Source of the DNA: a virus
Taxonomy: Duplodnaviria > Caudoviricetes
DNA: 32,789 nt
Reading direction: 5' to 3' (one strand)
IMG/VR virus record: IMGVR_UViG_3300011334_000360
Span: 1 to 32,789 of that record
Below, in pieces: positions 560 to 7,307 of the stretch. The notes under the pieces were generated by a model that made no database searches, was not told the origin of the DNA, and saw only the letters and a program-made list of their open reading frames with translations. A program made the position numbers and the translations under genes. Numbering within the stretch: the stretch's first letter is position 1; the number at the start of each line of letters is the position of its first letter.

Positions 560-637
560 TTGATAATCAACGGTAAATGAGAAAAGTGAAAATAATTGTT
601 AAAATGTTGTAGACATTGCTCGCGAATCGGTTATCTT
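560..637 (+). promoter_or_regulatory. early promoter with A-rich UP-like region
   Basis: TAGACA (610-615), 16 nt, TATCTT (632-637); upstream A-rich tract resembles 7431-7486. Confidence 0.5.
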
Positions 638-688
638 TTGCCTGTCGCCGCGATTGGCGATCACAACAACTTGAAAATATACTTGAAT

Positions 689-1063
689 ATGAAACACACG
701 CTGAATACCTACGACATTGCAAATGCACTCCTCGCTGACACTAACGCAGCTTGGTCGCACGCTGGAGCTTACGCGCTCGCCGAATACCTGGAGGATTATG
801 AGGAGTCAACTGGCGAGGAGCTAGAGCTGGACGTTGTGGCTATCCGCTGCGACTTCTCAGAATACGCCTCATTGCAAGATTGGGCGAGCGAATACTTCGG
901 CGACGAGTCACAAGCGGCTGATGCACTAGGTCTTGATATTGATATGGACGGCGTGACAGTCGCGAATGACGAGTCAGAGATCGAGGAGGCAATCCGCGAA
1001 TATATCCAAGACCACGGTACACTGATCGAATTTGATGGCGGCATTATAACCTCCAGCTTCTGA
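689..1063 (+). CDS. acidic early phage protein (possible DNA-mimic/anti-restriction type)
   Basis: ATG 689 (MKHTLNTY...); very D/E-rich (YLEDYEESTGEELELDVVAIRCDFSEY); first gene after the promoters; function inferred. Confidence 0.75.
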   Translation: MKHTLNTYDIANALLADTNAAWSHAGAYALAEYLEDYEESTGEELELDVVAIRCDFSEYASLQDWASEYFGDESQAADALGLDIDMDGVTVANDESEIEEAIREYIQDHGTLIEFDGGIITSSF

Positions 1064-1114
1064 GCCGCTGACGAGTCCCAGGCAAGGGACGAAATCCCCG
1101 CAAGGGGATACGGC
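1064..1114 (+). ncRNA. type I hammerhead ribozyme (HH1)
   Basis: GCCG-CUGACGA-GUCCC(AGGCAA)GGGAC-GAAA-UCCCC(GCAA)GGGGA-UA-CGGC; complete catalytic core, three perfect stems, AUA cleavage triplet (cut after 1110). Confidence 0.93.
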
Positions 1115-1120
1115 ACAAGC

Positions 1121-1144
1121 CACAACACAACACAACACAACACA
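1121..1144 (+). repeat. (CACAA)n tandem repeat forming an unstructured leader
   Basis: CACAACACAACACAACACAACACA between HH1 and ATG 1147. Confidence 0.85.
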
Positions 1145-1146
1145 GA

Positions 1147-1389
1147 ATGAAAACTAAAACATCCGCAATCAAACACGCTCGCCAAATCGTATCGACACTG
1201 TCAGTCTTTGGAGATGGTTACTATTTCGCAACCTATGACGAAAAAATGAATGCATGGTGGCAACATGTCCCCAAATCATTCCACGCATCAACATTTGACC
1301 GCTCGCAAGCGTTGATCGACGCAGCCCGAGACTATCTCGATTTGCCGCCCGCGCAATATGACGGCGGGGCATGGACCGACTATGTTTAA
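1147..1389 (+). CDS. hypothetical early protein
   Basis: 80-aa ORF, ATG after A/C-rich leader, co-oriented with neighbours. Confidence 0.75.
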   Translation: MKTKTSAIKHARQIVSTLSVFGDGYYFATYDEKMNAWWQHVPKSFHASTFDRSQALIDAARDYLDLPPAQYDGGAWTDYV

Positions 1390-1429
1390 ACCCACTATCA
1401 CGGAAACCATACACAGCACAACACATACC

Positions 1430-1807
1430 ATGCAAACCATAGACCTACCTGAAATACTAAAGCTCCACAAATTGTGGCTAGAAAAACACCCCGACGGGAG
1501 ACGTGCCGACCTGCGCTGTGCCAACCTGAGCGGTGCCTACCTGAGCGGTGCCTACCTGAGCGGTGCCAACCTGAGTAGTGCCAACCTGAGCGAAGCACAT
1601 GGAATAAGATTAGCCGCGTGCCATTGGACAGCTCACGGAGAGAGGGGGAGACTGTTAAGTGCGGTTGAGATTGAAGGGGAGGTAACATTTTTTTGCGGAT
1701 GCTACCAAGGCAACGAGAGAAGCCTACGCGAGTATATCTCAATGCACAACCCTGAACATGCGAGCAGCCGCACCAAAGCCCTTGAGTTCCTGCTATCCTG
1801 CTTCTGA
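1430..1807 (+). CDS. pentapeptide-repeat protein
   Basis: ADLRC-ANLSG-AYLSG-AYLSG-ANLSS-ANLSE repeats after the typical ILKLHKLWL...GRRADL N-terminus; C-terminal FFCGC motif. Confidence 0.88.
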   Translation: MQTIDLPEILKLHKLWLEKHPDGRRADLRCANLSGAYLSGAYLSGANLSSANLSEAHGIRLAACHWTAHGERGRLLSAVEIEGEVTFFCGCYQGNERSLREYISMHNPEHASSRTKALEFLLSCF

Positions 1808-1851
1808 TTCCTCCCTACAACACAACACCCATGCACAGCACAACACATGCC

Positions 1852-1995
1852 ATGCAACCGACCTGCCAACTAATCCGCCGTCCTATCCGCCGTAACCAAT
1901 GGCGTAAATGGCTCACTGTCACCGCCGAAATCATCGGGGGAGTCGTCACGATTGCCCTACTTGTAACATTAACCCTCCTATGCTTAGCACTGTGA
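1852..1995 (+). CDS. small membrane protein (not in ORF track)
   Basis: MQPTCQLIRRPIRRNQWRKWLTVTAEIIGGVVTIALLVTLTLLCLAL; basic N-terminus plus one hydrophobic helix; stop overlaps next GTG (GTGA); ATG 1831 is an in-frame alternative start. Confidence 0.7.
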   Translation: MQPTCQLIRRPIRRNQWRKWLTVTAEIIGGVVTIALLVTLTLLCLAL

Positions 1996-2333
1996 CCACG
2001 TACGCAGCACTATCCCAGCGCATCCGCGCCGCCGTATCCACCGCTGATCTCGAAGCCTTAGAGAAGCGATGCGATAGGCACTATGCAGCAGGCACTATCA
2101 CGCCCCACGAGCTTTCCCGCTTGGATGAATTAACCATGGATCGCATAGCCAAGAACGGCGTCATAATTGACGAGCTTCACATCGCCCTCAGCGTATTAGA
2201 GCGGCGAGAAATTGATTTTGCCATGCGCGGCATGGTAGAGCACAGAAACTCCACGAGGCTGGCAACGCTGCCGATCAAGCGAGAAATCAACAAACTTGAG
2301 GGGAGGGAAATCTACCCCGAAGCAAGCCACTGA
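1992..2333 (+). CDS. hypothetical protein
   Basis: GTG 1992 coupled to the upstream stop; 3' part of track ORF 1908-2333; its stop codon is the UGA of the HH2 core. Confidence 0.7.
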   Translation: MTTYAALSQRIRAAVSTADLEALEKRCDRHYAAGTITPHELSRLDELTMDRIAKNGVIIDELHIALSVLERREIDFAMRGMVEHRNSTRLATLPIKREINKLEGREIYPEASH

Positions 2334-2373
2334 TGAGCCTAGGCAATAGGCGAAACCGCGCAAGCGGTCTGGC
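2326..2373 (+). ncRNA. type I hammerhead ribozyme (HH2)
   Basis: GCCA-CUGAUGA-GCCUA(GGCAA)UAGGC-GAAA-CCGC(GCAA)GCGG-UC-UGGC; canonical core, GUC triplet (cut after 2369). Confidence 0.95.
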
Positions 2374-2392
2374 ATGAGCCAAATCAAAATAT

Positions 2393-2635
2393 ATGATACT
2401 ATACCAAAAAACAGAAGATCCCCTCGTAATCGTAACCGACTCCAAAACAAAAGACGTGCAGACGAAAAAGCTAACTGGCACTTATTTTCGGATCATTCCC
2501 CCCGCAAATGATCGCGTAAATTGGGTGTTGACATGCTCAGAAATGCACGTTGACCGCTGGGCATCGGCTACAGACTCCACTATGATCATCTCCGAAAATC
2601 TACGCAATCAACTCGTAGCACTATTCCAATGTTAA
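2393..2635 (+). CDS. hypothetical protein
   Basis: 80-aa ORF just downstream of HH2, overlapping the next start. Confidence 0.7.
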   Translation: MILYQKTEDPLVIVTDSKTKDVQTKKLTGTYFRIIPPANDRVNWVLTCSEMHVDRWASATDSTMIISENLRNQLVALFQC

Positions 2636-2946
2636 TAGACAACAAAAGCGCGTTGATACAGTCCGTTGCTGATGTCGTCGGGGTAAAACCTGAAGCCATC
2701 ACTGGCAAGCGGAAACGGTATTCCGAGGCACTAGCTAGGCAGCTCGTTATGACACTCTGGAGTGAAGCACACTCGCTCCAAGACTCAGCCGAAATCGTAA
2801 ATCGAAACCATCACACAGCAGCATTTTATGCGCGGACAAAAACCTACGAGAAATTGCACTATTGCGAGAAATCAAAGGAGCAAATGCGCAAGATATTGCA
2901 AAGATATTCACAGATTATTCTTGAACAAAATGAAACAAGCCACTAA
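2629..2946 (+). CDS. DnaA C-terminal (domain IV)-like HTH DNA-binding protein
   Basis: VADVVGVKPEAITGKRKRYSEALARQLVMTL...SLQDSAEIVNRNHHTAAFYA follows the DnaA_C pattern. Confidence 0.75.
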   Translation: MLIDNKSALIQSVADVVGVKPEAITGKRKRYSEALARQLVMTLWSEAHSLQDSAEIVNRNHHTAAFYARTKTYEKLHYCEKSKEQMRKILQRYSQIILEQNETSH

Positions 2947-2994
2947 AACACTCTTGTGCAGGACATTACTGCACTATCACAACACCAAAATATA

Positions 2995-3573
2995 ATGAAC
3001 CTAGAACACAGCACACCTGAATTGTTTACTGCCCTAGCAAAAATGCAAGGAGAAGTAGAAAACGCCACAAAAGGCTCACTAAATCCACATTTCAAGTCGA
3101 AATACGCGGATCTAGCCGAGGTCTTGAACACCGTTCGCCCAGTATTGGCAGCGAATGGATTATCCGTGATCCAATCGCCCTCGTTTGACGGCGCGATCTG
3201 TCACGTCACCACCACTATCGCCCACAGCGGTGGTGGTTACATTTACGGCACTATGTCCTGCGTCCCTGCTAAAATGGACGGGCAGGGCGTAGGTGCTAGT
3301 ACTACATATTTGAGGCGGTATAGCTTAGCGGCCGTGTGCGGGGTAGCTCAGGAGGATGATGACGGGCAATCTGCCGCGCATAATCGCCCAGTAGTCTATC
3401 CGCTGATCTCCAGCGGTGAAGCTGCCAGAATTCGCGAGAACATCGAAGCACTTGCTATCGACGAACTCGCATTTCTGAAGCACTACGGGGTAACATCTGT
3501 GGCACAGCTAACCACTGACAAAATCGCCAGCATTGACAAAGCGTTCGCAATCAAAGCCAAAGCCAAGCCATGA
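2995..3573 (+). CDS. erf: ERF-family ssDNA annealing protein
   Basis: ALAKMQGEV..ATK...NPHFKSKYADL, QGVGASTTYLRRYSLAAVCGVAQEDDDG. Confidence 0.92.
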   Translation: MNLEHSTPELFTALAKMQGEVENATKGSLNPHFKSKYADLAEVLNTVRPVLAANGLSVIQSPSFDGAICHVTTTIAHSGGGYIYGTMSCVPAKMDGQGVGASTTYLRRYSLAAVCGVAQEDDDGQSAAHNRPVVYPLISSGEAARIRENIEALAIDELAFLKHYGVTSVAQLTTDKIASIDKAFAIKAKAKP

Positions 3574-4376
3574 AAAACGCAACTATTGAATACAATCTAG
3601 GTAGAGCTTACTACTCACGCTCCGCATCGCCGACAAACCTGTCAGGACCTGTCAGCAAGTCGCTACTATGGGATTTCAATCAATCCCCTTACAAGTGGAG
3701 ACACAGCGCCGGCAAGGAATCGACCCGTGCCATGGATCTAGGCACGCTGATTCACGCAGCGATCTTAGAACCCAACATCCCTCTGGATGTCATCGCCGCA
3801 GTATCGCCATTCTCTGATTTCCGCACAAAAGCAGCCCAGGAGTGGAGAGACGATGCGCGAGCAATGGGAAAAATGATTGCTACAGATGACGATATTCGCG
3901 CTGCTAGCGGGTGTGAAGCGGTCTTTTCTGAGGACTATGCGCAACGCTTTGCTGGTGGCTACAAATCCGAGGTGGCAGTTTTTGCCACTATCGGGGCAAC
4001 GGACATAAAAGGCATGATTGACCTTGTGCCTGACAATCTCGACCTGCTTGTGGATCTGAAAACGACTGCCAAAATCGGCAATCTGCGCAACATCACCAAC
4101 ACTATCATTGACCGAGGCTATCACTGGCAAGCAGCGTTATACTTGGATCTGTGGAACGCAGCAAGCGGTGAGAATCGCACTCGCTTTGTTATCTGTTTTA
4201 TCGAGGTAACAGCACCGTATGAATCGGCATGGGTGGAAGTATCACCCGAGTTGATCGAGGCGGGGCGAGTCGGCTACATGAACGCGCTTGCGAAATGGCA
4301 ATCCTGCGTAGCTGTAGGCGTATGGCCTCGACAACATGAGGGCATCACCACTATCGAGAAACCCGCTTACCTATAA
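3570..4376 (+). CDS. PD-(D/E)XK RecE/exonuclease VIII-like nuclease (DUF3799 type)
   Basis: SKSLL, AMDLGTLIHAAILEP, KGMIDL...VDLKTT, GYHWQAALY; adjacent to ERF with ATGA overlap. Confidence 0.9.
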   Translation: MKNATIEYNLGRAYYSRSASPTNLSGPVSKSLLWDFNQSPYKWRHSAGKESTRAMDLGTLIHAAILEPNIPLDVIAAVSPFSDFRTKAAQEWRDDARAMGKMIATDDDIRAASGCEAVFSEDYAQRFAGGYKSEVAVFATIGATDIKGMIDLVPDNLDLLVDLKTTAKIGNLRNITNTIIDRGYHWQAALYLDLWNAASGENRTRFVICFIEVTAPYESAWVEVSPELIEAGRVGYMNALAKWQSCVAVGVWPRQHEGITTIEKPAYL

Positions 4377-4421
4377 ACCAAAAAAGAGGGGGCGCGCATC
4401 TCACACCACGCGTTTTATATT

Positions 4422-4649
4422 ATGAAGAAAAAATATGATGCAGTCGCCACCGTGGGCAAATACACGAAGGACGGAATAGAGAAAAAGCGATATTTGACCG
4501 TAGGAGCGGTTTTTGAGAGCGACGAGGGTAAACTTACCCTAAAGCTGGAAGGAGTGCCTGTATCGCCCGATTGGAGCGGTTGGATCGCATTCTACGAGCC
4601 GAAGTTGGGTTACACTGGAACAACTGAGAACGATACACCGCCATTCTGA
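4422..4649 (+). CDS. small beta-rich protein with acidic C-terminal PF tail (SSB-like)
   Basis: follows recombination genes; ends ENDTPPF; SSB role inferred. Confidence 0.6.
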   Translation: MKKKYDAVATVGKYTKDGIEKKRYLTVGAVFESDEGKLTLKLEGVPVSPDWSGWIAFYEPKLGYTGTTENDTPPF

Positions 4650-4885
4650 TGAACTCTCCAACTCTCACGATTGAAGAAATCAAAAGTAATCTTTGTTATT
4701 ACGACCCAGAGAACCCGAACAATTATCTCGACGGTTTTGATGACGAAGACAGCATCACCCCCAGAGAGAGCGACTGTGCTTGCGACAACTGCTTCTATGG
4801 TCGCGACAAACTTGCTCTATATATCTTGTCGACCGCTTTAATAGGGTCTTCATTCTCTCCACAGAACGAAACACCTCCATTCTGA
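4649..4885 (+). CDS. hypothetical protein in a repeat-flanked cassette
   Basis: 78 aa with CACDNC; ends QNETPPF, duplicating the previous gene's end. Confidence 0.7.
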   Translation: MNSPTLTIEEIKSNLCYYDPENPNNYLDGFDDEDSITPRESDCACDNCFYGRDKLALYILSTALIGSSFSPQNETPPF

Positions 4886-5142
4886 TGAGCATCTTCGACG
4901 ACACGCCGCTGGAAATCGGAACGCAATACTACGATAAGGAAATCATCGGGTGGAATCCTGATGAGAGAAAATATCTAATTGCTTGCCCACGCTTTCGCAC
5001 GAAGGAGCTTTGGCTCTCCAAGGAGAAAGTGGATGCTGAATATGGGAATAGTCTCATGGCAGGAGTAGTGTGCCGCGAGTCGAAGCCAGGAAGCAGCTAC
5101 AACACCCGATATTTCAGAAGTCGGGTAGATAGCCCAGAATGA
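4885..5142 (+). CDS. hypothetical protein
   Basis: ATG 4885 in TGATG overlap (MSIFDDTPLE...). Confidence 0.7.
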   Translation: MSIFDDTPLEIGTQYYDKEIIGWNPDERKYLIACPRFRTKELWLSKEKVDAEYGNSLMAGVVCRESKPGSSYNTRYFRSRVDSPE

Positions 5143-5170
5143 AAAATATCCTTGCCACCTCCATCCAATC

Positions 5171-5383
5171 ATGCAAACTGACCATATGAAAACGCCAACG
5201 TATTCACCCGAAGAGGCAGAGAAAAACGGCTACAAGTCGATTACTACGCTTTATTTCTTCAATGATGAAGCAGACATGAAATATCTCTCTGCTGTTTTGG
5301 CTGATATGGCAAATGTTAAACATTGCCTGATAAAAACGCTCCGAGGAGTGGAGGTGGCAAGGCTTAAAACCGAGATCCTATGA
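5171..5383 (+). CDS. hypothetical protein
   Basis: 70-aa ORF with ATGA overlap to the next gene. Confidence 0.65.
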   Translation: MQTDHMKTPTYSPEEAEKNGYKSITTLYFFNDEADMKYLSAVLADMANVKHCLIKTLRGVEVARLKTEIL

Positions 5384-5583
5384 ACTTGTTCCCAGAATTA
5401 CCAGAGGAGGAATCGCCCCGCCTAAAATGGATGAAAGCGAAGAACATCCACACGCTGAAAACCAAGGATAACAGATGGGTAGCATATAAAAGCGAGACAC
5501 AGCACAATTTCACCCACGAAGATGAGATTGACGCTGTTGTAGGTCTTGCTAAGAAGCTAAAAATCAAACTCTGGAAAGAGTGA
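5380..5583 (+). CDS. hypothetical protein
   Basis: 67-aa ORF (LFPELPEEESPRLKWMK...), translationally coupled. Confidence 0.7.
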   Translation: MNLFPELPEEESPRLKWMKAKNIHTLKTKDNRWVAYKSETQHNFTHEDEIDAVVGLAKKLKIKLWKE

Positions 5584-5611
5584 TTGACTCCGCGCCCGAT
5601 TGTGCTACTTT
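5584..5611 (+). promoter_or_regulatory. promoter for sRNA-1
   Basis: TTGACT, 16 nt, TACTTT, with TG upstream of the -10. Confidence 0.55.
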
Positions 5612-5616
5612 TGCGC

Positions 5617-5763
5617 GTCTGCTATTGTTGAAAGTTGTCTCCATGACATGCGCAAGCTAGGCAATAAAGGACACATCTCATTTACCATGCGTAAAATGAG
5701 ATACGAACACGCTTAGGCGTTTTCAGCAGACCCCGTCAGCACCCACTGGCGGGGTTTTTGTTT
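5617..5763 (+). ncRNA. putative structured small RNA (sRNA-1) with three-way-junction motif
   Basis: GUCUGC/GCAGAC closing stem; core UAUUGU-UGAAAGU-UGUC(UCCAU)GACA-U-GC(GCAA)GC-UAG-GCAAUA; extra hairpin AUCUCAUUUAC/GUAAAAUGAGAU; no ORF; covaries with 7218-7262. Confidence 0.75.
5730..5763 (+). terminator. intrinsic terminator
   Basis: ACCCCGTCAG-CACCCA-CTGGCGGGGT followed by TTTTGTTT. Confidence 0.85.
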
Positions 5764-7150: not shown

Positions 7151-7307
7151 AAAAAATATCTCCCAAAGTGTGCATCGTTGAGAGGCATGGGAGATCTGCT
7201 GTGATTGGAGACCCGCACCCGATCTAGCTTTCGCGATGACATGGAGTCAACTTTCAATCGGGGCAGGAATCCCACCTACTACGCGCAATGCTGCGTTTCG
7301 CAAGTTC
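7151..7307 (-). ncRNA. putative structured small RNA (sRNA-2), second copy of the three-way-junction motif
   Basis: core CCCGAU-UGAAAGU-UGAC(UCCAU)GUCA-UC-GC(GAAA)GC-UAG-AUCGGG; extended CCUGC/GCGGG stem; ends in AUCUCCCA/UGGGAGAU hairpin plus AUUUUUU. Confidence 0.75.

Follow-up and report, generated by a model that had tools for sequence, protein, structure and literature searches.

A type I hammerhead motif behind the first early gene of a tailed phage as a probable member of a set of interchangeable mRNA-cutting elements

The early region and its two hammerhead motifs

The window analyzed here, a stretch of 32,789 bases, is the whole assembly of a tailed phage. The minus strand holds the genes for major capsid, terminase, tail and endolysin, and the plus strand carries small early genes together with those for an Erf-like annealing protein and exonuclease VIII. 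Gene 1 (689..1063, plus strand) encodes 124 amino acids and falls into PHROG 9974 (unknown function); its UGA stop codon (1061-1063) abuts the ribozyme motif described below. It is followed by gene 2 (1147..1389, plus strand; 80 amino acids, unknown function) and by gene 3 (1430-1807), which contains pentapeptide repeats (Pfam PF00805). A promoter-like site precedes gene 1 (610..637, plus strand), with a stronger match at 252-281, and a terminator-like hairpin with a U tract (5728..5757, plus strand) is a candidate end of the early transcript. These promoter-like and terminator-like sites are consensus matches only, and their frequency in the window is not above that in shuffled sequence. Short imperfect repeats of a TTTCCC-containing unit are located at 383-450, between two promoter-like sites. 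The 20 start regions inspected are mostly A-rich and lack a clear Shine-Dalgarno sequence. On the minus strand, an Rfam match to the abiF RNA was observed at 7158-7194 (41.5 bits, gathering score 37) in a mostly non-coding stretch.

The gene 1 protein is very acidic, with 30 aspartate or glutamate residues compared to 3 lysine or arginine residues, and its fold was predicted with confidence (pLDDT 90). A Pfam ArdA match is absent in all 37 members of the gene 1 family. Resemblance to the ArdA structure 2w82 is weak, both in Foldseek (E 1.3, TM 0.38) and by structural alignment (Z 4.5, rmsd 4.1, 86 aligned positions). This weak ArdA-domain likeness, together with the acidity, makes the product of the first early gene a candidate DNA-mimic antirestriction protein.

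The sequence at 1064-1114 (plus strand) reads as a complete type I hammerhead, termed HH1; stem I is open, and loops close stems II and III. The 5' arm of stem I (1064..1067) pairs with 1111-1114. It is followed by the core segment CUGACGA (1068..1074; consensus CUGANGA), by stem II (1075..1090), which consists of five base pairs (1075-1079/1086-1090) and the 6-nt loop AGGCAA (1080-1085), and by the core segment GAAA (1091..1094), both core segments being direct readings. Stem III (1095..1110) comprises the pairs 1095-1099/1104-1108, a GCAA tetraloop and the AUA triplet (1108-1110), which is the less common triplet among hammerhead copies, and gains an A1094-U1109 pair. The cut is predicted between A1110 and position 1111, and the 3' arm of stem I (1111..1114) would form the 5'-OH start of the downstream RNA. 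A GCC tail (1119..1121) is the predicted pre-cut pseudoknot partner of loop II positions 1081-1083. An A/C-rich, unstructured leader without a Shine-Dalgarno sequence (1122..1146) leads up to the ATG of gene 2, 36 nt past the predicted cut.

A motif scan of the whole window for three topologies returned two matches, one with its core at 1068 and one at 2330. Dinucleotide shuffling (100 sequences) gave on average 0.09 matches (maximum 2) with stems of at least 3 pairs and 0 with at least 4 pairs. The full core, the stems and the two matches compared to none in 100 strict shuffles uphold the hammerhead identity proposed in a first-pass annotation of this DNA. The Rfam check suggested there had a negative outcome: no hammerhead reached the gathering score in the window, and both HH1 and the second motif, HH2, were missed. 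For HH1, Hammerhead_3 (RF00008) matched partially at 1052-1094 with 25 bits versus a gathering score of 48.5, and Hammerhead_HH9 (RF02275) gave a weak partial match of 18.1 bits versus 52. A model built from the family and run on the window with filters off returned only HH1 and HH2, which both belong to its training set, and the next match scored 10.6 bits. The minimum-energy fold of the strand does not contain stem I, and the nearest-neighbour probability of this stem is 0.14, which is low because pairings of 1054-57 with 1067-70 and of 1112-14 with 1119-21 compete; the folding models used cannot score pseudoknots or the tertiary core. Overall, HH1 is a real and, on sequence grounds, very probably active hammerhead.

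HH2 (2326..2380, plus strand; predicted cut after 2369) is also a type I hammerhead and shares the subtype of HH1. Its body spans 2326-2373 with the core at 2330, and the UGA of this core (2331-2333) is the stop codon of the upstream 113-amino-acid gene (GTG at 1992). HH2 heads a conserved block consisting of gene 6, gene 7, the Erf gene and the exonuclease gene. A hammerhead precedes gene 6 in all 17 related contigs that extend to this gene, some of which are near duplicates: 16 were found by the strict scan and one is a variant with a stem II mismatch. On one of the related contigs, L044, the gene 6-exonuclease block occurs a second time in inverted orientation, together with a partial hammerhead (3249-3313, minus strand); this copy may be an assembly artefact.

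Covariation and a loop-tail contact in related copies

Pattern and protein searches of viral contigs yielded 79 distinct type I contexts, including HH1 and HH2. The covariation alignment comprised 53 distinct copies selected for a GGC in loop II and a GCC in the tail, and, as stem lengths vary, counting was restricted to the inner 3-4 pairs in stems II and III. Stems I, II and III were paired in 100% of the counted cells, and two-sided changes occurred in 6 of 11 counted pairs, with each stem represented; as the copies are related, these counts are not independent. The rarer G-C pair in stem I and U-A pair in stem III of HH1 are such compensated changes. Conservation of the core in related phages, which the first-pass annotation had named as a test, was found as well, the core being invariant in the 53 copies. 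One contig (L010) carries HH1 and its leader at 92% identity between different genes.

Several further observations were made in these searches. Two hammerheads (L115:2240-2310 and L044:3650-3717) have a U at the base of stem II, where a G is usual, so that the first pair is mismatched. At least 11 type I hammerheads lie in one gene array of a G+C-rich phage with Shine-Dalgarno leaders (contig IMGVR_UViG_3300015371_000033; loci L043 and L162), three of which are of the GGC/GCC subtype. No type I hammerhead was found in C75C1, the nearest annotated phage by capsid (54%). Prokaryote genomes gave 30 pattern matches, of which two passed the type I stem test, neither with the GGC/GCC pair.

The co-occurrence of the two short motifs was assessed in 72 hammerheads found by searches with neither the loop nor the tail fixed; in the 53-copy alignment, selected for both motifs, the pairing rate is circular. 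Loop GGC and tail GCC were both present in 48 hammerheads and both missing in 20, and only 4 had one of the two. A fourth pair was Watson-Crick in 29 of 51 copies compared to 23.9 expected (p about 0.02). The best loop-tail duplex had a mean length of 3.32 bp compared to 2.94 bp with shuffled tails (0 of 2000 shuffles as high), and in some copies it reaches 5-6 bp with matching changes. Because the copies are related, the p-values here are overstated. The contact in HH1 is only 3 bp long (1081-83/1119-21). The GGC of loop II and the GCC of the tail thus likely pair as a conserved pseudoknot between stem I and stem II, as far as comparative sequence data can tell. According to the parts of Perreault et al. 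2011 available to us (PMC3088659), about 40% of hammerheads have such a pseudoknot, each of the three types includes examples, and one tested type II hammerhead needed it for fast cleavage.

The pseudoknot uses the same bases as an extension of stem I through the gene 1 stop codon and therefore excludes this extension in HH1. The extension, put forward in the first-pass annotation, can be drawn in HH1 and is not conserved: 31.1% of cells were paired compared to 28.8% after shuffling, 73 of 500 shuffles were as high, and its pairs in HH1 have a predicted probability of 0.02-0.05. We rejected it on account of this near-shuffled pairing level and low probability; the pseudoknot fits better. A looser test of pairing between upstream sequence and tail gave a slight excess (2.66 versus 2.50 bp; 66 of 2000 shuffles as high; at least 4 pairs in 11 of 73), in line with an upstream-tail extension in single copies at most.

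Gene junctions and their exchangeable elements

The junction behind gene 1 was compared in related phages. Of 54 loci with a gene 1 relative, 53 were examined (one ends inside the gene), and six duplicate another. None of the 53 has a type I hammerhead after the gene 1 stop. A long hairpin takes this place in five loci, with the two closest full-length relatives (84% and 77%) among them, and a type II hammerhead in four. Short hairpins of 6-8 bp with a T-loop-like loop were recognized in eight loci by pattern and in four further ones by eye. Most of the remaining loci have no recognized element, which also applies to other junctions of the window. Since many junctions are without an element, cutting at the HH1 junction is dispensable. 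The two closest relatives carry a type I hammerhead 5' of gene 1, which is not the first gene there. The association of HH1 with gene 1 itself, as initially annotated, is therefore not retained; HH1 is a swappable junction module. Sequence comparison makes it most likely that HH1 belongs to a group of interchangeable devices for cutting the early polycistronic mRNA.

The short hairpins (L046:4389, L048:4392, L054:4389, L065:4343 and others) have a 7-nt loop resembling the tRNA T-loop, and are located at early gene junctions with up to three per locus; some end in CCA and others in U tracts. Those with U tracts are possibly terminators.

The position of type I hammerheads relative to the neighboring genes is narrowly confined. 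We collected 45 distinct upstream protein ends, of which four ambiguous ones were dropped, and took stops from the longest open reading frame. In 34 of the 41 genes, the upstream stop begins between -12 and +1 relative to the core; it is at -7, as in HH1, in eight of the 41. In 18 of 41, the UGA of the core ends the longest upstream reading frame, as it does in HH2. Owing to the type I topology, the stop codon and the ribozyme body stay on the upstream piece. On the other side, each of 35 distinct downstream genes has its ATG 20-49 nt past the cut (search range 12-80 nt). The leaders after the cut are 78% A or C, and a Shine-Dalgarno-like word occurs in 4 of 35. This constant placement at gene junctions, together with the compensatory changes described above, supports two earlier predictions, namely the cut after A1110 and, as far as can be judged from sequence, processing of the early polycistronic mRNA by HH1.

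The proximity of stop codon and ribozyme raises the possibility that the ribosome terminating on gene 1 controls the folding of HH1 and thereby couples cleavage to upstream translation. In the 34 of 41 genes mentioned above, the stop is inside the ribozyme or at most 12 nt from its 5' edge, i.e., within the ribosome footprint, and the 18 reading frames ending on the core UGA point in the same direction. Masking the bases through 1063 lifts the stem I probability of HH1 from 0.14 to 0.44; however, masking through 1067 abolishes stem I, so the two masking results oppose each other. Moreover, the offset drifts within one family (-10, -7 and +1; KTCAVPE-type protein ends), the upstream pairing is not conserved, and tight gene packing predicts the same stop spacing. 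The long hairpin also begins at the stop, and the junction holds non-hammerhead elements in relatives. We consider such control by the ribosome unlikely.

The cassettes might also serve mainly as repeated DNA homology for the shuffling of early genes, with cleavage being secondary. In 14 of the 17 contigs, homology of the gene 6 block begins at 2319-2326, where HH2 has its 5' edge, the flanking genes of the L010 copy differ in spite of its high identity, and the phage encodes both an Erf-like annealing protein and exonuclease VIII. However, breaks of homology at gene boundaries are general in phages, the compensatory changes preserve RNA structure and erode DNA identity, and the same slot is filled by unrelated folds. 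A recombination function may exist alongside cleavage instead of replacing it, and as the main purpose of the cassettes it seems quite improbable.

The long hairpin was further characterized in 16 distinct copies (among them L045:4110-4190, L044:4373-4445 and L057:4364-4440). Its consensus has 21 pairs, 12 of which show two-sided changes, and a 2x2 internal loop. The center is invariant (CCC-RU-UG / CA-UA-GGG) and accompanied by an alternative 3' hairpin. In all 16 copies, the CCC lies 9-16 nt past the stop and an ATG 24-49 nt downstream. Seven lie behind a gene that has a homologue in front of a hammerhead elsewhere, six of these genes being gene 1 homologues, and three lie ahead of a gene with a homologue behind a hammerhead elsewhere, one of these being a gene 2 homologue (81%). 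Accordingly, both neighbors of HH1 occur with the hairpin instead. The alternative hairpin forms when the 3' arm pairs with a downstream CCGC, and this short hairpin might cap the downstream product; it has a GAAA tetraloop in L047 and is changed on both sides in L087, as seen by eye.

From its size, the long hairpin is a putative RNase III site, as it corresponds to an irregular helix of about 22 bp. The proximal and distal box determinants of such sites are degenerate. It might instead be an undescribed small self-cleaving RNA that occupies a plug-in slot for RNA-cutting devices. If this were true, the whole toolkit would be host-independent mRNA punctuation. An Rfam search of eight related loci, at least five with the long hairpin, gave no hairpin match at E up to 1. 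Compared by eye, the hairpin did not fit the layouts of HDV-like, pistol, twister or hatchet ribozymes, which were rejected. We regard a self-cleaving hairpin as very unlikely. Finally, that the cut destabilizes the RNA or that this copy of HH1 is misfolded and inactive is highly improbable: competing hairpins dominate the predicted ensemble, the pseudoknot has only 3 bp next to the less common AUA triplet, and all gene 1 relatives examined lack a type I hammerhead at the junction, but the core bases of HH1 are all intact, its rarer G-C and U-A pairs are compensated, and a near-identical copy persists in another phage.

Proposed role and relation to known systems

We therefore favor, with a probability of roughly 0.7, the view that HH1 is an intact type I hammerhead that cuts the early polycistronic mRNA after A1110 and so defines the ends of gene blocks. 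HH1 would cut soon after transcription and without a host enzyme, and the pairing between loop II and tail would form the pseudoknot that fast hammerheads need. Together, HH1 and HH2 would split an early transcript of approximately 5 kb (about 645 to 5760) into three pieces carrying gene 1, genes 2-5, and everything from gene 6 on. Hammerhead cleavage generates 2',3'-cyclic phosphate and 5'-OH ends, an end chemistry that is protective. The upstream piece would keep its stop codon and end in stems II and III with a 2',3'-cyclic phosphate, and the downstream piece would begin with a 5'-OH and possibly an end hairpin of 3 bp, and would carry a leader of 36 nt. Once the RNA is cut, the tail (1119-1121) can refold with 1112-1114 into this end hairpin (-4.1 kcal/mol), which would aid product release. 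Each gene block might thereby gain defined ends, stability and a translation start whatever its upstream context, an autonomy that would suit a region of constantly shuffled small genes. In the early mRNA of T7, RNase III sites fulfil this task. Opening of the next start codon by cleavage was rejected, as the predicted access changes little on cutting (from 0.81 to 0.38 kcal/mol for gene 2 and from 6.55 to 6.37 kcal/mol for gene 6). This makes stability or insulation likelier than translational activation.

Clustered phage hammerheads are already published (Perreault et al. 2011), and HH1 adds a member to a layout known since then. In the parts of that paper available to us, prophages and phages carry multiple hammerheads around single genes or short blocks of variable identity, for which the authors propose a processing into shorter mRNAs; one cluster flanks ardA, and three tandem arrangements cleave in vitro and one in E. 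coli (PMC3088659). The present case is similar in that at least two same-strand hammerheads are located between genes of varying identity. It differs in that the phages swap the hammerhead with a non-ribozyme hairpin, an interchange that does not appear in the passages of that paper considered here (PMC3088659). A 2019 review, as far as its accessible part goes, notes that purposes of phage hammerheads have been proposed and are still to be defined (PMC6765202). Our literature search, with most subscription papers outside its reach, found none on the GGC/GCC subtype or on the swap. The gain is modest, as the phenomenon is published. The same junction carrying a type I hammerhead, a type II hammerhead, an RNase III-like hairpin or nothing nevertheless represents a set of natural swaps, which support mRNA processing by comparison and could serve as matched constructs in a direct test.

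HH1 shares its catalytic core with the hammerheads of Rfam clan CL00010. Its subtype, with a 4-bp stem I, loop GGC and tail GCC, is below all Rfam gathering thresholds, so a pseudoknotted subtype is missed by Rfam. HH9 has a long stem I, in place of which HH1 has a short stem I and the tail pseudoknot. Three short motifs of the subtype are absent from the text supplements of Perreault et al. that were searched, whose gapped alignments could hide matches (PMC3088659).

A comparable use of folded RNA is known from T7, where the early mRNA contains five RNase III signals according to the accessible part of the source (PMC3867540). These mark cuts in a long early transcript, as HH1 and the hairpin of its relatives would. 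The relatives' hairpin, with about 21 pairs and an internal loop, is near the 22 bp given for a two-turn RNase III substrate in the same part of that source (PMC3867540). HH1 needs no host enzyme and would leave a 5'-OH and a cyclic phosphate, whereas the T7 sites use RNase III. The products of RNase III carry a 5'-phosphate and a 3'-OH. In RiboJ-type insulators, a hammerhead placed before the leader fixes the downstream 5' end regardless of the upstream sequence. Unlike RiboJ, HH1 is natural and intergenic, and the A/C-rich leader behind it lacks a Shine-Dalgarno sequence.
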